Source: Candidatus Saccharimonadota bacterium
GTDB taxonomy: Bacteria > Patescibacteriota > Saccharimonadia > Saccharimonadales > SZUA-47
NCBI GenBank assembly: GCA_043727115.1
Contig: JAYSZA010000007.1
Coordinates: 1 to 41,796 of the forward strand
DNA: 41,796 nucleotides
Reading direction: 5' to 3'
The notes beneath the pieces are model-generated. The model did not search any database. It was given only the letters and a program-made list of their open reading frames with translations, and was not told the DNA's origin. Positions 3,436 through 31,972 of this stretch are shown one piece after another (the first letter of the stretch is position 1; each line of letters begins with the position of its first letter). A program made the translations under genes and the position numbers.

Positions 3436-4650
3436 GTGAAGATAAAACTACAAAAGTCTTTGGTTAGTTTTTGGGGATGGGCAAGAAATTTTTTCTGGCG
3501 CCGCTCTACAATTTACGGCATTATTCTACTGGCTTTGCTTGCAGCGATTGTATCGCAGTTATCTGTACTACCAAACAAATTCTCTAGTGCTGAAATAGAT
3601 TACGCTACACAGTCACGGAGCTACACATCAATAGGCCAAGATCCTCTCTCGCTTCCACACAAGCTTTCAACATACACGGTTACAAAATTTACCGATTCTG
3701 CTCGATGGGTAAGAGCAATTAGCATAGTTTTCTTTGGGTTCTGTGTCGTTGCATTATATAGAATTCTAAAGCGTTGGCACAGTGACCAAATTGCCTTGTT
3801 TAGCACGGCCCTCTTTGCTACTAACGCCACAGCTCTAGCGATAGGAAGGCTCGGAACTCCACTTGTGTTGCTATTTGGCTGGTCGATAATTATTTCGTTG
3901 TTGCTGTGGATACAGCATGGTTATTCCCGTAGAATTGCACCATTCTTCTTGGTTGTGTTTTCTGCGGCATTGTTGTATGTTCCTGGAGCACCGTATTTCT
4001 TCGTCTTGCTTGCTTTATTGTTTGGCAAAAAATTGCTAAAAACCGTATCGGAGCTTAAACGTTCAACTATTGTGGTTGCTATTCTTGCCGCTACGTTTGT
4101 CCTGTTGCCGCTTGTCCTGAGTTTCATTGGAAATATTTCAGTACTTAAGGTATGGTTGCTGCTCCCGGATACTATTGAAATTAAATCGATTTTAGTGAAC
4201 ATATTAAGGGTCCCTTCGGCATTTATTTATAGAAGCCCTGTTGACCCACTATTAAATGTTGGCAGGCTACCTATTCTTGATGTTGCATCTGGCGGATTTT
4301 TCTTGATAGGCGTATACGCATACCAACGCCACATCAAACTTGAGCGAACAAGAATAATGATTCTTACAGCCATTTTAAGTGTGATTATTGGTGCACTAGG
4401 ACAAGTTGCTATCGCTTCAGCAATTCTACTACCCTTTGTTTACAGCGTAGTCGGTGCGGGTATAAGTTTTGTGCTAGATGAGTGGTATTCCGTTTTCCCT
4501 AAAAATCCCTTTGCTCGTAGCTTTGGATTACTTTTAGTTACTCTAGTTGTATTAATGAGCGCATATTACCAGCTAACCAGGTTTTTGGTTGTTTGGCCGC
4601 AGACTCCGGAAACACGTGCCGTTTATACGCAGTCTAGTCTGATACAATAG
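3436..4650 (+). CDS. Multi-pass membrane protein, probably GT-C fold (PMT/ArnT-like) glycosyltransferase-related
   Basis: About 10 hydrophobic segments. The pattern of E after TM1, then P and 'RAISIVFFG..V.ALY', resembles PMT_2-type proteins. Family assigned by eye only. Confidence 0.55.
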   Translation: MKIKLQKSLVSFWGWARNFFWRRSTIYGIILLALLAAIVSQLSVLPNKFSSAEIDYATQSRSYTSIGQDPLSLPHKLSTYTVTKFTDSARWVRAISIVFFGFCVVALYRILKRWHSDQIALFSTALFATNATALAIGRLGTPLVLLFGWSIIISLLLWIQHGYSRRIAPFFLVVFSAALLYVPGAPYFFVLLALLFGKKLLKTVSELKRSTIVVAILAATFVLLPLVLSFIGNISVLKVWLLLPDTIEIKSILVNILRVPSAFIYRSPVDPLLNVGRLPILDVASGGFFLIGVYAYQRHIKLERTRIMILTAILSVIIGALGQVAIASAILLPFVYSVVGAGISFVLDEWYSVFPKNPFARSFGLLLVTLVVLMSAYYQLTRFLVVWPQTPETRAVYTQSSLIQ

Positions 4651-26788: not shown

Positions 26789-28072
26789 ATGGCACAGACG
26801 ATTTATGATTTAGTTGTAGTTGGTGGCGGTGCGTCCGGTATGATGACTGCTATTGTTTCAGCGCGTAATGGTGCAACCGTTGCTTTGATCGAGAAAAATA
26901 ACCAGTTAGGAGAAAAACTCCGTATCACAGGCGGTGGGCGTTGCAATATCACAAACGCCGAGTTTGATTTACGCACATTACTCAAGAACTACGGAAAAGC
27001 AGAGCAGTTTTTATACTCCGCTTTTACTGAGTATGGGGTGCAAGATACGATAGATTTTTTCAAACAACTTGGGCTTCCTGTCAAAATAGAAGCACATAAA
27101 CGAGCTTTCCCGGTTAGCGAAAAAGCTGAAGATGTCGTAAATGCCCTAATCCATGAACTGCACAAAAACAACGTAGATATTATAACCTCAAGTCCCGTGA
27201 CCAAAATAAACCACAGTAAAAATACTATATTTTCAATCACTTGCGGCAACAGAACAATCAAAGGCCGTAACTATGTCTTGGCAACCGGAGGAACATCGCG
27301 TCCAGAAACTGGTGCAACCGGCGACGGGTTTGGCTGGCTAGAATCACTCGGCCATTCTGTCAAAGCACCAACACCTAGTATTACTCCACTGAAATCAAAA
27401 GAGACGTGGGTCAAAAAGGTATCAGGCAATAGTGTCAAAGGAGCGCGTGTCACATTTTACTGCGACGGAATCAAGGCTTTCAGAATAGATGGCGATATAT
27501 TATTCACACATTTTGGAATATCTGGACCGATTATTCTGAGCAACGCCTACCGTGTCGCAGAACTATTAGAACAGGGAAATGTGACTGCCAAAATTGATTG
27601 TTTACCTGAAGTGGATTCTAAGCAGTTTGATGCTAGCGTCGTAGAGTTACTACACCAAAACGGCAGTAAACAAGTCAAAAACGTCTTGCGACTTATAGCA
27701 CCTGCTGGACTGGCTCATATGTTGACAGAGCTTTTGAACCTTAAGATAAATTTAGATACAAAATCAGGCGAGCTTAGCAAAAATGATAGAAAAATCCTGA
27801 TAGATTCAATAAAAGATTTGCCGTTGACGATTGACAGTTTAATGGGCGTAGAAAAAGCCGTGGTTGCCGACGGCGGAGTTAGTTTGAAGGAAATCGATAC
27901 CCGGACATTCAAATCAAACATCATTGATAATCTGTACGTTACCGGAGATTTATTAGACATAACTAGACCATCCGGCGGATATTCTTTGCAACTATGCTGG
28001 ACTAGTGGTTATATCGCCGGAAACTCAGCGAAGCTCTATAGCTCTCCAAATGACACCACACAAATACAATAA
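26789..28072 (+). CDS. HI0933/YhiN/BaiN-family flavoprotein
   Basis: GGGASG, G.KL.ITGGGRCN.TN, LATGG.S.P.TG.TGDG, LFTHFG.SGP, GGYSLQ..W.SG. Confidence 0.93.
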   Translation: MAQTIYDLVVVGGGASGMMTAIVSARNGATVALIEKNNQLGEKLRITGGGRCNITNAEFDLRTLLKNYGKAEQFLYSAFTEYGVQDTIDFFKQLGLPVKIEAHKRAFPVSEKAEDVVNALIHELHKNNVDIITSSPVTKINHSKNTIFSITCGNRTIKGRNYVLATGGTSRPETGATGDGFGWLESLGHSVKAPTPSITPLKSKETWVKKVSGNSVKGARVTFYCDGIKAFRIDGDILFTHFGISGPIILSNAYRVAELLEQGNVTAKIDCLPEVDSKQFDASVVELLHQNGSKQVKNVLRLIAPAGLAHMLTELLNLKINLDTKSGELSKNDRKILIDSIKDLPLTIDSLMGVEKAVVADGGVSLKEIDTRTFKSNIIDNLYVTGDLLDITRPSGGYSLQLCWTSGYIAGNSAKLYSSPNDTTQIQ

Positions 28073-28130
28073 CCCTTTTAAGTGAGCCGGCGATGCAAAG
28101 GATTCACCGATCACTTGCTACAATAAAGTT

Positions 28131-28637
28131 ATGAACAATTACTGTTATGTGGACGGACAGAATCTACATCTTGGTACAGCAAGTGCTGATCCGGGATGGC
28201 ATGTTGATTTACTTAGATTCCGCATATACTTAAAGGAGAAATATCACGTTGAAAAAGCATTCTATTACTTAGGATTCGTTCAAGAGGGTTCAGAAATTGA
28301 ATATCTTTATGAGACTATACAGGCTGCGGGTTTCATTCTGGTTTTCAGACAACACAACTCCGCAATGATCGGTAAGAAAAAAGGCAATGTAGATTCGGAT
28401 ATAATTTTCTCTGTAATGAAACGACTTCATAAAAAAGAAAAATTTGATAAAGTCGTTCTTGTTTCTGGGGATGGTGATTACAAAATGCTTGTTGACTATC
28501 TCATAGAAGAAAAACGACTAGCTAAAATCCTTTTTCCTAACAAAAAATTTCGTTCTTCATTGTACAAACAAATTGGCGCACAGTACTTTGCGTACCTTGA
28601 CGACGTGGATGTAAAGAAGAAGATAAAAAGGCAATGA
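28131..28637 (+). CDS. NYN-domain (LabA/DUF88, PIN-like) putative ribonuclease
   Basis: YVDGQNL, KGNVDSD, LVSGDGDY catalytic acidic motifs intact; TGC-TACAAT 6 nt before the ATG. Confidence 0.9.
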   Translation: MNNYCYVDGQNLHLGTASADPGWHVDLLRFRIYLKEKYHVEKAFYYLGFVQEGSEIEYLYETIQAAGFILVFRQHNSAMIGKKKGNVDSDIIFSVMKRLHKKEKFDKVVLVSGDGDYKMLVDYLIEEKRLAKILFPNKKFRSSLYKQIGAQYFAYLDDVDVKKKIKRQ

Positions 28638-28640
28638 AAT

Positions 28641-28690
28641 GAAAAGAGCTCCTTAGGTAATGAGCCGTTCGGAACTCTGATCGTCTTGAT
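28641..28690 (-). ncRNA. Candidate ~50-nt small RNA convergent with the NYN gene
   Basis: Lies downstream of a consensus promoter; AGAGUUCC/GGAGCUCU stem followed by a U-tract; no start codon in the predicted transcript. Confidence 0.55.
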
Positions 28691-28696
28691 GACAGT

Positions 28697-28725
28697 ATAG
28701 TATCACGTAAACGTTTATTTTTCAA
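28697..28725 (-). promoter_or_regulatory. Sigma70 promoter on the minus strand
   Basis: TTGAAA (28725-28720)-17 nt-TACTAT (28702-28697) with TGn extension. Confidence 0.65.
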
Positions 28726-28738
28726 TAAGGAGACTCTA

Positions 28739-31700
28739 GTGCAAATAAAGCTTAACGCTGCTCAGTCTAAGGCCGTTGATTATATTTACGGACCTTTATT
28801 GGTTCTGGCAGGGCCAGGAACGGGCAAGACTCAGCTGTTAAGTGCGCGTATTGCGAATATTTTGACCAAAACTGATGCTAATCCACAGAATATTTTGTGT
28901 CTGACGTTTACAGAAAACGCTGCGCAGAATATGCGCGAGCGTTTGACTAGTATTATTGGCGACGGCGCCTACGATGTGCATATCAACACTTATCATGGCT
29001 TTGGTAGTGACATAATTCGCCAATACCCGCAGTTTTTTGAGACAATCGATTTAGAGACCGGCGAAGATTCACGGTTAGAACGGCCAATTGATGATTTACG
29101 GCGCATACAAATAGTAGAAGAAATCGTCGCAAAATTACCGTACAGCAGTGCTATGATAGGCGCCCGTCACTACATCAAGAACGTCGTTTCGACTATTAGC
29201 GAGCTCAAACGGGCGCTTGTTACTCCAGATTCTTTGCGCAAATTAGCAGCCAATAATCTAAAACAAGTTAGGGAATTGTCACCAAAAATTGCAGAACATT
29301 TGACTGATGTTACCCGGTTTCCTTCAAGCGCTGATAAAGCCCTAGGGTTGTTCAATGGTATAGAAGAAGTTTTGGCGGGGCAGTATGGTTTGGCGCAAAT
29401 CGCTCATGATGAAATCGAACATGCAATGGCGGAGGCCAGTGACATTGGCAAATCATCACCGTTAACGGCATGGAAAAACAAATGGCTCACCAAAGACTCA
29501 GAAGACGGCTACAGATTTACAGACGAAGACCAACATTTGCGAATGAGCGAGCTAGCCAATGTATTCGAAAAATACGACCGAGCATTAAGCGACAATCAAC
29601 TCTACGATTTTGATGATATGATTTTGCGCGTTATTGATGCTTTACAAAACCAAGATGAACTACGATTCAATCTGCAAGAAAAATACCAGTTCATATTGCT
29701 TGATGAGTTCCAAGACACAAACGCTGCTCAGTTTGAACTAGTGAAGCAACTCGCTAATAACCCTGTTCATGAAGGCCGACCAAATGTCTTTGCCGTTGGT
29801 GATGACGACCAAGCAATTTATGCTTTCCAAGGCGCTAGAGTCAGCAACATGCTTGGATTTATTAATACTTTCCGAAATGTCGAGGTTATAAATCTAACAG
29901 AAAACTATCGTTCCCACCCGGATATCATCCACGTCGCACACAACATTGCGCGTCAAATAGAATCTCGTTTACACACACAAATTGAAGGTGTAGAAAAAAC
30001 TCTAAGCGCCAGTTCAAATAACTTACCGAAGAATTCTGATATTGAGCGACACGAATTCGACGGAGAAGCTAATGAATATTCTTGGGTCGCATCCAAAATC
30101 AAAGAGTTAGTAAACAATGGCACCAGCCCTGAAGAAATTGCAGTCCTTGCACCAAAACACAGATATCTAGAAAACATAGTACCGTTTTTGGCCAAAAATA
30201 GCGTACCTGTAACATACGAAAAGCGTGAAGATATTCTGAAAACACCGATGCTGCAAGCGTTCCGTCTAATGAGTCGACTTATTATTGCCTGTAAAAACCA
30301 GGATGAATATTTGATGAGCGAACTGTTTCCGCAAGTTCTAAGTTTAGAATTCTTCAATATTCCGGTCAAAGAAATATGGACAGTGAACTGGAAACATAGA
30401 ACTTCAGAAGCGGAAGGTAGAACTTGGGCAGAACTAGCACTTGATAGTCCCGTGCTAGAATCACATGTTTTGTTCTTTTTGGGGCTTGGCCTCAGGGCAG
30501 AGAATGAACCACTTGAATATATGCTAGATTTACTTACTGGTAGCACGCATTTAGACATTGGTAGCGACGCAGTTTATGCATCTCCGCTCAAGTCATACTA
30601 CTTTACAGACAGTTCAAAAAACACACTTCGTTATTACGAACTTTTGACCAATCTCAGTGCAATTCGTGAACATCTACGCAATCACCAATCAGCTGAGGAG
30701 AATCTACTGTCATTACAAGATTTTGTAGATTTTATACAGGCATATGAAACCGCAGAACAGCCACTGATTAATACTCACCCGATTGCGCAAAGCGCTGATT
30801 CTGTACAGATTATGACAACCTACAAAGCAAAGGGCCTCGAGTTTGAGCACGTGTTTTTACTGTCTGTTCATGACGATGTTTGGGGCAAAAAAGCTAGGAG
30901 TAATTCTAGTAAACTTAGTCTCCCGGCAAACTTGCAACATGTGCGTTACCAGGGAAGTGACGAAGATGAACTACGTAGATTGCTGTTTGTAGCAATTACA
31001 CGTGCTAAGCATGGTCTATACCTAACTTCTCACGCCAACAAAGATAGCGGCAAATCTACAGAACCGGTTAAATATTTGCTGGAATATAGTGATGGAGACT
31101 ACAGAAAAAGTACGGTTCTTCCAGAGTCAAAACAAACTGTGCAAGAAACGCACTTTAGCCCAGAGGAAACCATGCAGGCCATCGATACGTTATGGGACAG
31201 TAGACACCTAGAACTAACCTCAGACTTGAAAAGCTTGCTTCAGGAGCGACTGACCAGATATGTAATGAGCCCAACGCACTTAAACACATTCATAGATACA
31301 GAGCATGGCGGTCCAGAAGTATTCTTACTGCAGACATTGTTACGCTTCCCACAAGCACCAGGCGAGGATGGTGAATTCGGTAGTGCAATACACGGCGCAT
31401 TAGACAAATTACAAAATCGTATCAATACTGGTGCTAAGCCAACACTTAGCCTACTTCTTTCAGATTTCGACAAGCAACTCGCCAAACGCTATATAGCAAA
31501 AGACCGCATGGACGATTTCCGTAACCGCGGACATAACGCGCTGAAGAGTTACTTTTCTATAAGTGAAAATATGTTTACCAAAACAGCCAGAAGTGAAGTC
31601 GATTTTCGAAACGAGGGAGTCGTTTTGGGTGATGCCCGATTAACAGGTAAAATCGACCGACTAGAAACTGATGAGGCAAGCAAAACTGTAGATATCGTTG

Positions 31701-31972
31701 ACTACAAAACTGGTAAACCACTGACAAAATGGGATAGTTCCATTAAAGCGCAGAAATACAAACAACAGCTGTATTTCTACAAGCTTTTGATTGAAGGCTC
31801 GCACACATGGGCCGGCTACAAAGTAAATTCCGCCCGGCTAGAGTTCGTAGAACCAGACACTCAGAGCAGAGCAGTTGCTCCACTGCAAGTAATTTTTGAA
31901 GAAAAATCTGAGAACGATATCAAGAGCTTGATAGCAGAGATCTGGACCAAAATTCAAAACCTAGATTTCTAA
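28739..31972 (+). CDS. UvrD/PcrA-type SF1 helicase fused to a C-terminal PD-(D/E)xK (RecB/AddA-like) nuclease
   Basis: LAGPGTGKT, LTFT, LDEFQD, VGDDDQAIYAFQGA, LTENYRS, KAKGLEF, RRLLFVAITRA; C-terminal G..IH, GKIDRL, IVDYKTG, QL.FY; TAAGGAG SD. Confidence 0.93.
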   Translation: MQIKLNAAQSKAVDYIYGPLLVLAGPGTGKTQLLSARIANILTKTDANPQNILCLTFTENAAQNMRERLTSIIGDGAYDVHINTYHGFGSDIIRQYPQFFETIDLETGEDSRLERPIDDLRRIQIVEEIVAKLPYSSAMIGARHYIKNVVSTISELKRALVTPDSLRKLAANNLKQVRELSPKIAEHLTDVTRFPSSADKALGLFNGIEEVLAGQYGLAQIAHDEIEHAMAEASDIGKSSPLTAWKNKWLTKDSEDGYRFTDEDQHLRMSELANVFEKYDRALSDNQLYDFDDMILRVIDALQNQDELRFNLQEKYQFILLDEFQDTNAAQFELVKQLANNPVHEGRPNVFAVGDDDQAIYAFQGARVSNMLGFINTFRNVEVINLTENYRSHPDIIHVAHNIARQIESRLHTQIEGVEKTLSASSNNLPKNSDIERHEFDGEANEYSWVASKIKELVNNGTSPEEIAVLAPKHRYLENIVPFLAKNSVPVTYEKREDILKTPMLQAFRLMSRLIIACKNQDEYLMSELFPQVLSLEFFNIPVKEIWTVNWKHRTSEAEGRTWAELALDSPVLESHVLFFLGLGLRAENEPLEYMLDLLTGSTHLDIGSDAVYASPLKSYYFTDSSKNTLRYYELLTNLSAIREHLRNHQSAEENLLSLQDFVDFIQAYETAEQPLINTHPIAQSADSVQIMTTYKAKGLEFEHVFLLSVHDDVWGKKARSNSSKLSLPANLQHVRYQGSDEDELRRLLFVAITRAKHGLYLTSHANKDSGKSTEPVKYLLEYSDGDYRKSTVLPESKQTVQETHFSPEETMQAIDTLWDSRHLELTSDLKSLLQERLTRYVMSPTHLNTFIDTEHGGPEVFLLQTLLRFPQAPGEDGEFGSAIHGALDKLQNRINTGAKPTLSLLLSDFDKQLAKRYIAKDRMDDFRNRGHNALKSYFSISENMFTKTARSEVDFRNEGVVLGDARLTGKIDRLETDEASKTVDIVDYKTGKPLTKWDSSIKAQKYKQQLYFYKLLIEGSHTWAGYKVNSARLEFVEPDTQSRAVAPLQVIFEEKSENDIKSLIAEIWTKIQNLDF

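Follow-up and report, generated by a model that had tools for sequence, protein, structure and literature searches.

The stretch of DNA analysed here, referred to as the window, comprises the 41,796 nucleotides (nt) of contig JAYSZA010000007.1 (positions 1–41,796, forward strand; GenBank assembly GCA_043727115.1) of a Candidatus Saccharimonadota bacterium. It contains a gene for a NYN-domain nuclease and, directly behind this gene on the opposite strand, a predicted gene for a small hairpin RNA. According to the comparison with other genomes, the latter is predicted as an RNA gene with its own promoter, a strand-specific fold and defined ends, and it is coupled physically and evolutionarily to NYN genes throughout the phylum. 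A preliminary description of the window had proposed a two-part module of nuclease and RNA, and the data below agree with this proposal.

The predicted small RNA gene and the facing NYN gene

The features of the two genes are as follows.

28116–28124, plus strand: promoter of the NYN gene, extended -10 box TGcTACAAT, 6 nt 5' of the ATG
28131–28637, plus strand: NYN-domain (LabA-like, PIN-fold) nuclease gene, 168 amino acids (aa), intact, TGA stop codon at 28635–28637
28725–28720, minus strand: -35 box TTGAAA, consensus match
between the -35 and -10 boxes, minus strand: spacer of 17 nt
28702–28697, minus strand: -10 box TACTAT, consensus match, with TG extension at 28705–28704
28640–28690, minus strand: predicted small RNA of about 51 nt, 5' end at A 28690, 3' end in the U tract at about 28637–28642
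28679–28690, minus strand: single-stranded 5' tail AUCAAGACGAUC, 12 nt; family consensus AUYAMGACGA, wider family AUCAC
28645–28678, minus strand: hairpin with an 8-bp stem AGAGUUCC/GGAGCUCU, one U-G pair, 18-nt interior
28653–28670, minus strand: hairpin interior with GAAC, a GG/CC mini-stem, the 7-nt loop CUCAUUA (YUNR-type start) and UAA

The minus-strand promoter TTGAAA-17-TGaTACTAT (28725–28697), the hairpin at 28645–28678 with its 18-nt interior, and a transcript reading from A 28690 into UUUC and ending near the NYN stop codon had all been put forward in the preliminary description, and all were found again in the sequence. The RNA start was assigned from the position of the -10 box and from a conserved A-U at column 71 of the alignment described below. 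The predicted transcript runs in the order AUCAAGACGAUC-AGAGUUCC-18 nt-GGAGCUCU-UUUC, and its 3' end is located at the NYN stop codon or slightly before it, with UUUC AUUU running up to this codon. On the plus strand, the hairpin arms read AGAGCTCC (28645–28652) and GGAACTCT (28671–28678). The middle stem pair is U-G on the minus strand and C-A on the plus strand. In most relatives the stem has 12 bp; in the window two outer pairs are mismatched.

The site in the window, taken alone, is weak evidence, and the comparison with other genomes lifts it far above chance. Nine promoter-like sites were counted in 2 kb, compared with 4.9 ± 1.8 in shuffled sequences. The 71-nt minus-strand fold has an energy of -16.2 kcal/mol and a z-score of -2.3 (4 of 200 shuffles equal it), and the plus-strand fold of the same region has a z-score of -0.6. 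The covariance model (CM) described below matches the window at 28633–28693 on the minus strand with 73.8 bits.

The only minus-strand open reading frame (ORF) in the gap encodes 62 aa (28725–28537) and starts within the -35 box, in line with the earlier statement that no credible minus-strand gene is present. AUG, GUG and UUG are absent from alignment columns 4–40 in 41 of the 62 related RNAs. A peptide-coding RNA was considered and rejected: the AUC/AUU frame ends differently in the genome of the window (G000) and in two others (G002 and G395), its changes are not synonymous-like, and the start codon is not conserved. It had also been remarked that most comparable promoters in the window are soon followed by a start codon. 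This remark holds: among the 40 ORFs with 100 aa or more, 21 are preceded by a TAnnnT box, often TG-extended, that ends 5–11 nt before the start codon. A Shine-Dalgarno-like motif precedes six of these 40. About half of the genes in the window look leaderless (for example those at 3436, 5656, 17161 and 33650).

No family for the RNA is present in Rfam 15, and the one match in the window is a tRNA elsewhere. At E ≤10, the RNA region gives only matches of 10–13.5 bits, compared with gathering scores of 36–229. The hairpin is also not listed by a scan for consensus terminators. It has the stem and the U tract of an intrinsic terminator, and it departs from a plain one in its 18-nt interior with invariant letters, its own promoter and its conserved 5' tail; the preliminary description had likewise called the interior atypical.

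Two further candidate roles were rejected. On the plus strand, the 5' arm of the hairpin (AGAGCUCCUUA, 28645–28655) can pair with the Shine-Dalgarno region of the downstream helicase gene (UAAGGAGACUCU, 28726–28737), and the whole-gap fold has a z-score of -2.1; however, G002 lacks such a Shine-Dalgarno sequence and most loci lack the helicase. Mimicry of the ribosome (UAAGGAG in the RNA and CUCCUUA on the opposite strand resemble Shine-Dalgarno and anti-Shine-Dalgarno sequences) is limited to the type-A subfamily of RNAs defined below. A BLAST search of the gap against the genome of the window for trans targets gave only matches of 14–23 nt, one of which is the terminator of tuf. This terminator (C32:349–398; AAAAAAGAGCTCC-A7-GGAGCTCTTTTT) has the same stem letters as the small RNA and a plain loop; thus the RNA stem resembles those of ordinary terminators in this genome. 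A weak CM match at the same place, taken at first as a second copy of the RNA, is this plain terminator.

The NYN protein of the window matches Pfam PF01936 with 54 bits (cut-off 24.2; E 3.5e-14) over residues 6–144. The NYN profile of PADLOC matches it weakly (E 1.8e-5), and a search of NCBIfam gave no match. The acidic active-site residues Asp88, Asp114 and Asp116 are present in 72 of 72 aligned homologues, and Asp8 and Asn11 in 71 of the 72. Judged from these residues, the NYN ribonuclease is probably catalytically intact. As only 6 nt separate the end of the -10 box from the ATG, the mRNA is predicted to be leaderless. A TGnTAnnAT box is located 5–9 nt ahead of the start codon in most of the 41 NYN loci examined.

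Conservation in close relatives and in the type-A family

A NYN homologue was found in 36 of 41 related genomes, and a close one only in G002 (78% identity). The hairpin of G002 is nearly identical to that of the window, and the minus-strand promoter TTGATT-17-TGcTAATAT is at the same position with a wholly diverged spacer. G395 has the same NYN gene, hairpin and promoter (TTGCTT-17-TGcTACTAT), and the next gene downstream is unrelated and convergent, not a helicase gene. As G395 keeps the promoter without the helicase, the promoter travels with the NYN gene.

Initial search patterns that fixed the covarying stem letters gave matches in 2 of 31 and 3 of 401 genomes, and they understate the spread. 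An exact scan of one genome per species with CTCCTTAGG-N7-CCGTTCGGAAC gave 58 matches in 55 stretches; the RNAs of this kind are called type A. All matches but one are in metagenome-assembled genomes (MAGs) whose records label them as lineages of the Patescibacteria or as unclassified bacteria, and the exception is a 1.6-kb contig in a bin labelled Pseudomonadota. Together with the window and three metagenome loci, the matches were aligned without gaps as 62 distinct sequences. Columns 19–29 and 37–45 are imposed by the search pattern and are uninformative. As the set was collected by an RNA pattern, NYN genes without the RNA cannot appear in it. Promoters were called by consensus match only.

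Over the 62 sequences, 96.3% of the stem cells are paired, and 98.7% in the 12-bp outer stem. Two pairs covary (pair 17-48: G-C 34, A-U 26, G-U 2; pair 18-47: G-C 35, A-U 25, G-U 2). In the seven pairs free of the pattern, 425 of 434 cells can pair in the minus-strand sense and 391 on the other strand. These free pairs contain 35 G-U cells versus one A-C cell, which establishes the minus strand of the window as the RNA strand, as had been proposed. The third inner pair, 30-36, is unpaired in 24 of the 62 copies and so is not kept. U31 and U35 are invariant in the type-A copies, outside the letters imposed by the pattern, and the apical loop starts with YUNR in 61 of 62.

The -10 box ends at one alignment column (63–64) in 56 of the 62 copies. 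A TG extension is present in 46 copies and TTGACA or TTGACT in 28, and on average 9.4 of 12 positions agree with TTGACA/TATAAT. The 5' tail (columns 4–13) has a mean pairwise identity of 89% and the apical loop one of 65%; the value is 31% for the promoter spacer and 26% for the sequence beyond it. The NYN proteins of the type-A loci have a mean identity of 66% and a minimum of 47.5%. The fixed distance, kept in G395 and in the 56 copies, assigns the promoter to the RNA and not to the helicase gene, the alternative that the preliminary description had raised against itself.

Linkage of the RNA to NYN genes

In 55 of the 62 copies, NYN coding sequence faces the RNA directly behind the hairpin. 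Among these 55, three are the distal members of tandem RNA pairs, five face NYN remnants of less than 100 aa despite available sequence (L042, L070, L076, L078 and L091), about six face truncated or interrupted NYN genes (L059, L063, L064, L068, L072 and L096), and three are cut by contig ends (L040, L045 and L097). The other seven copies have no NYN match. The NYN genes of L063, L064 and L096 are otherwise more than 80% identical to intact ones and carry an early stop or a break; codon 5 of L063 is TGA.

The position of the NYN stop codon varies from 21 nt before to 16 nt after the start of the pattern, often as TAG within CCTTAGG. Therefore, the conservation of the RNA is not due to coding.

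The genes flanking the module differ across the 58 other loci. Among 105 flanking ORFs scanned with Pfam, no constant third gene was found. The flanks are housekeeping genes (RuvB, DnaB, CysRS, GrpE, FtsK, Pol III alpha, ArgRS, sigma-70, MiaA and others), and some are genes of mobile elements or conflict systems (rve integrase, Fic, AbiEii-like ATPase, SocA/Panacea and MmeI). A NUDIX hydrolase gene lies beside the module, on either side, at seven of the 58 loci (L044, L052, L060, L073, L087, L088 and L091), which may be chance if NUDIX genes are common. At L079, in a MAG labelled Kaiserbacteria, a UvrD-type helicase gene lies beyond the RNA promoter as in the window, with an rve integrase gene on the opposite side.

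Distribution over the phylum and RNA subtypes

A CM was built from the 62 type-A sequences; its E-values are rough. At E ≤1e-4, matches were found in 7 of 150 genomes drawn evenly from the phylum. A complete NYN gene adjoins six of the seven, and a contig end cuts off the remaining one. The matches break columns that the pattern had fixed, with compensating changes. At four loci, the scores are 64–76 bits on the RNA strand versus 12–16 bits on the opposite strand.

A protein search of the same evenly sampled genomes found a NYN homologue in 40 of the 150; the whole set of loci gathered by NYN protein comprises about 40. A strict detector that makes no use of the CM was applied to the region downstream of NYN: a promoter score of at least 9, an AU[CU]A[CA] start motif, a fold of -12 kcal/mol or below, and a U tract. 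On the opposite strand, 21 of 29 loci pass, as compared with 0 of 29 in each of three controls (same strand downstream, upstream forward and upstream reversed). Seven of the eight failures lack only the start motif, and L151 shows nothing. In the printed sequences, the layout can be read by eye at 28 of the 29 loci. These results, together with the 55 of 62 copies above, indicate a conserved two-part module of a NYN gene and a promoter-driven hairpin RNA. The distance from RNA start to NYN stop codon is 1–58 nt over the 29 loci, including L151 without the RNA layout; thus the stop codon is within the stretch complementary to the RNA.

All 11 intact NYN relatives from a metagenome protein search show the layout by eye. 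The divergent ones among them are seven genes with 36–42% identity to that of the window, and five of these seven pass the strict detector. No close relatives of the NYN protein were found in IMG/VR (searched with peptide words), among the plasmids of PLSDB or among GenBank phages.

The RNAs fall into subtypes that share a near-consensus promoter, a 5' AUCAC with a few further nt, an irregular hairpin and a U tract. The hairpins have an A-rich 5' arm, a U-rich 3' arm and an apical loop such as UUUCGU or UUUUGU. AUCAC-like starts are present in most of 35 diverse RNAs. The loop starts with YUNR in 25 of the 35, compared with 12.6 in shuffled loops, and since the sequences are related the counts are not independent. 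Over 13 divergent RNAs, A4, U5, A10, G12, G28, G29, U31 and U35 are invariant. The subtypes track the NYN clades. Of the five genomes with two or three NYN modules, four have RNAs whose subtypes clearly differ; the reading is less clear at the extra loci of one multi-module genome (G507).

According to a quick tree, the type-A NYN proteins form a clade (37 rows, 100% support) separate from a clade of NYN proteins without the RNA (24 rows, 99% support). Two genomes, G007 and G019, are included in the tallies of related genomes and in two rows of the latter clade (L021 and L022), and the conclusions are independent of both. The genome of the window has a second NYN paralogue of the RNA-less clade (C47:5912–6349). 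A small same-strand gene, starting with M(D/E)V..(I/V)N and membrane-protein-like, follows NYN genes of this clade in several relatives (loci L007, L014, L015, L018, L025, L026 and L028).

Tandem, orphan and phage-borne copies

Three related loci contain tandem RNA genes. Between the copies of a pair, 54 of 54 positions agree, a span that coincides exactly with the predicted transcript, and their promoters and flanks match at only 22–23 of 64 positions; the RNAs differ between the three genomes. As the identity covers exactly the predicted transcript, it marks the ends of the functional unit. This pattern suggests that the RNA sequence has to match something in the same cell, for which the end of the NYN mRNA would be the obvious candidate. 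Two type-A RNA genes in one genome were also observed at L061 and L062 (one contig, 2 kb apart) and at L064 and L090 (one MAG). In the L061/L062 pair, the NYN gene opposite one RNA is intact, and that opposite the other is reduced to a few C-terminal codons.

Orphan RNA genes with intact promoters occur in five tested genomes, three of which have other NYN genes. Two near-identical contigs of IMG/VR (L171 and L172, 1–3027; CheckV completeness 63% and 87%) also carry an orphan copy, with an extended -10 box, a compensated stem and conserved loops. It is located in the replication region, between genes for a DnaD-like loader and a metallophosphoesterase, and no NYN domain was found on the two records. 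The copy may be a decoy RNA, seen in this single lineage. The same phage-like lineage is the sole hint that suggests a conflict with phages. Another IMG/VR record (L173, 1–3027) has a degenerate hairpin copy, whose neighbours are a serine recombinase, one CdiA_C-like and one Doc/Fic ORF, and a NYN fragment of 95 aa; these surroundings look like a small island of toxin-type genes.

Proposed function and alternatives

Among the explanations considered, we favour, with slightly less than even confidence, an antisense, antitoxin-like RNA that would restrain the leaderless mRNA of the NYN RNase. The module would be a self-contained unit of two genes in about 650 bp. NYN would be produced from a leaderless mRNA, driven only by the extended -10 box. 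The facing RNA gene of about 50 nt would be driven by a near-consensus promoter and would give an 8–12-nt 5' tail, a long irregular hairpin, a U-turn-type loop and a U tract, and the hairpin would double as a bidirectional terminator. Complementarity between the RNA and the NYN mRNA would be complete at the 3' end of the latter, with the stop codon included in most family members. Being abundant, the RNA would pair loop-to-loop with the 3' hairpin of the NYN mRNA. The duplex could then be cut by RNase III or, alternatively, could block translation termination and yield a non-stop mRNA for tmRNA; both RNase III and tmRNA are encoded in the genome of the window. Either route would keep NYN synthesis low in the manner of an antitoxin. 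We infer transcription of the RNA, base pairing, repression and NYN toxicity.

Four points favour antisense action at the 3' end of the mRNA: the overlap is constant, the tandem copies are identical, the loops are of the U-turn kind, and the NYN mRNA, being leaderless, has no 5' untranslated region to target. The seven RNA copies without NYN, the approximately 11 that face remnants or interrupted genes, the RNA layout at all 11 intact NYN relatives from metagenomes, the variable flanks, the empty sites in relatives and the genomes with two or three modules form a pattern like that of toxin-antitoxin modules.

Several observations weigh against an antisense antitoxin. The commonest NYN clade in the order of the window is without the RNA, and one of its 27 testable loci has it; thus NYN proteins do not all need the RNA. 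Of the five tested genomes with orphan RNAs, two have no NYN domain at all. The identity of the tandem copies could stem from gene conversion, and the three genomes are related. In the window, the RNA ends at or a few nt before the stop codon, and the outer stem has two mismatches. Its plus strand has no U tract, so the NYN transcript may read through into the helicase gene. Among sequencing runs, the region 27600–29600 of the window was found only in DNA runs of sediment metagenomes and in no RNA run. We know of no toxicity of NYN proteins. Finally, cis-antisense pairing needs no sequence conservation, and yet loci whose NYN proteins have only 33–45% identity to that of the window retain the AUCAC tail and the U-rich apical loop; this indicates recognition by a conserved protein.

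This last point is better explained by a protein that reads the RNA, and direct binding to NYN is a strong rival of antisense action, or a second layer of control. The RNA would then act on the NYN protein as a pseudo-substrate or inhibitor, as in type III systems, or as a stable RNA-protein partner. We regard this as somewhat less probable than antisense action, with which it is compatible. The AUCAC tail would lie at or close to the active site, and specificity would come from the internal loops. Protein-bound RNAs typically combine unpaired nucleotides that are conserved with stems that covary. The 5' tail at 89% identity against 31% in the promoter spacer, used as a neutral proxy, the eight invariant positions from A4 to U35 in the 13 divergent RNAs and the AUCAC-like starts in most of the 35 diverse RNAs are all as expected for binding. 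The same can be said of the subtypes, which track the NYN clades and coexist in one genome, and of the phage-like orphan, which keeps its loops while its stem changes are compensated. Conversely, the layout is not that of type III systems, with repeats upstream on the same strand, and neither processing sites nor repeats were seen. Protein binding also does not require the constant overlap with the 3' end of NYN, nor the identity of tandem copies that includes the variable loop letters.

A positive role of the RNA in the housekeeping RNA processing of reduced genomes, whether as a cofactor of NYN, as its processed product or as its specific substrate, appears improbable. The pair is present in about a quarter of the sampled genomes, as most of the 40 with a NYN homologue have the layout. 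The available text of PMC5499597 ties bacterial NYN genes to tRNA or rRNA processing by gene neighbourhoods, and that of bioRxiv 10.1101/2024.04.08.588522 reports trimming of CRISPR RNA (crRNA) by a CRISPR-associated NYN protein. The distribution, however, is patchy down to the level of the genus, many NYN remnants occur, the flanks are not constant, and a genome may have several divergent modules. As the stem buries the variable part of the RNA, this part cannot act as a guide.

Control at the level of DNA or transcription only is very improbable. Two promoters converge within about 600 bp on a common bidirectional terminator, and collision or occlusion of polymerases could limit NYN expression or read-through, with the RNA as a by-product. 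A by-product, however, would not keep its 5' tail, its loop letters and a stem covariation biased to G-U, nor would it persist as orphan, tandem or phage-borne copies.

A plain NYN terminator beside the AT-rich promoter region of the helicase gene, which draws on the plus-strand TATAGT box overlapping the -10 box, the shared stem sequence of the tuf terminator and the weak statistics of the single site, is hardly credible: loci without a following helicase still have the promoter and the hairpin, relatives without the module start the helicase from a different box 27–29 nt after msrA, a C-A mismatch is present and a U tract absent on the plus strand, and all comparative data contradict it.

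A broader proposal goes beyond the antisense antitoxin. NYN and its AUCAC-tailed facing RNA might represent an unnamed, phylum-wide class of RNA-antitoxin and nuclease-toxin pairs, a hybrid of type I layout and type III-like recognition, which would be a main addiction or abortive-infection system of the candidate phyla radiation (CPR) and would be countered by phages with decoy RNA copies. We consider this rather unlikely.

To our knowledge, almost nothing is known of the small RNAs and the toxin-antitoxin biology of the CPR (Patescibacteria). Here, the promoter, the transcript ends and the fold can be read from the sequence, and the module occurs in roughly a quarter of the sampled genomes. 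It offers a testable handle on NYN function, on RNA control of leaderless mRNAs and on the conflict between CPR bacteria and phages, and annotation of the Rfam type gains a new RNA family with several subtypes.

The helicase neighbour and the insertion site

28739–31972, plus strand: UvrD-type helicase with a PD-(D/E)XK nuclease domain (Pfam), a neighbour outside the module

The gap between the NYN stop codon and the GTG of the helicase gene (28739) is 101 nt. In relatives without the module, only 27–29 nt separate the end of msrA from the helicase gene, which is leaderless there and uses a different box. Thus, the NYN-RNA pair represents about 650 bp of inserted DNA, and in the window no duplication was found that flanks it. 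The helicase gene of the window starts with GTG and has a Shine-Dalgarno sequence.

Comparison with known systems

The LabA-like NYN proteins belong to group NYN.COG1432 of the PIN-like superfamily, whose function is listed as unknown in the available text of PMC5499597. The protein of the window is of the same Pfam family and has the same acidic residues as this group (structure 2qip), and the available text mentions no RNA partner. The CRISPR-associated NYN protein of Bacteroides fragilis is described, in the accessible part of bioRxiv 10.1101/2024.04.08.588522, as a Mn-dependent, non-specific RNase for single-stranded RNA that trims crRNA. Like the protein of the window, it is a bacterial NYN enzyme associated with a small structured RNA; unlike it, the B. 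fragilis protein is encoded, according to the same part, in a type III CRISPR locus without a convergent RNA gene. No RNA partner of a bacterial NYN gene was described in the full-text literature searched, which did not extend to subscription journals. Together with the lack of an Rfam match, this agrees with the earlier statement that no named system has this layout.

The preliminary description had drawn analogies to type III and type I toxin-antitoxin systems. Type III antitoxins (ToxIN, CptIN and TenpIN) are tandem repeats located upstream of the toxin gene on the same strand and processed by the toxin, and phages can escape such systems by mimic RNAs. The present module is similar in that an endoribonuclease is paired with a small structured RNA, and in that one phage-like lineage has an orphan RNA. 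It differs in its single convergent unit downstream and in the NYN fold of the protein. No repeat array bracketing the NYN gene was found in the window, and the analogy to ToxIN did not stand for the layout, as one RNA unit is located downstream on the opposite strand.

As regards type I systems, the genomic layout would make the predicted RNA complementary to the 3' end of the NYN mRNA, and the analogy failed for the protein, which is not a small peptide. The pairs par (Fst RNA I/RNA II of Enterococcus pAD1), txpA/RatA and bsrG/SR4 of Bacillus subtilis are type I systems with convergent RNAs that overlap at their 3' ends. In par, the toxin and antitoxin RNAs have a common bidirectional terminator, and recognition involves a U-turn (YUNR) loop. 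As in these three, a short, putatively antisense RNA with its own stronger promoter converges here on the putative toxin gene and would overlap the 3' end of its mRNA. As in par-type modules, the unit is small, patchy and often present in several copies, with a YUNR loop and a putative par-like common bidirectional terminator. Unlike type I toxins, which are usually hydrophobic peptides of less than 60 aa, the protein here is a soluble NYN nuclease of 168 aa. According to the accessible part of PMC12390103, the type I systems known so far are confined to Proteobacteria, Firmicutes and Tenericutes. Unlike par, RatA and SR4, the RNA family has conserved primary sequence (the 5' AUCAC and the apical loop), and its hosts are CPR bacteria.

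In Escherichia coli, the RNA antitoxins of SymE/SymR and RalR/RalA act on the 5' end or the coding region of leadered mRNAs. The target site and the protein fold differ from those proposed here, and these pairs have no common terminator. They are alike in that a nuclease-like toxin is under the control of an antisense or small RNA, and RNA antitoxins are thus not limited to membrane peptides. We therefore describe the present module as one that would work like an RNA-antitoxin pair, and not as a member of the type I or type III class.

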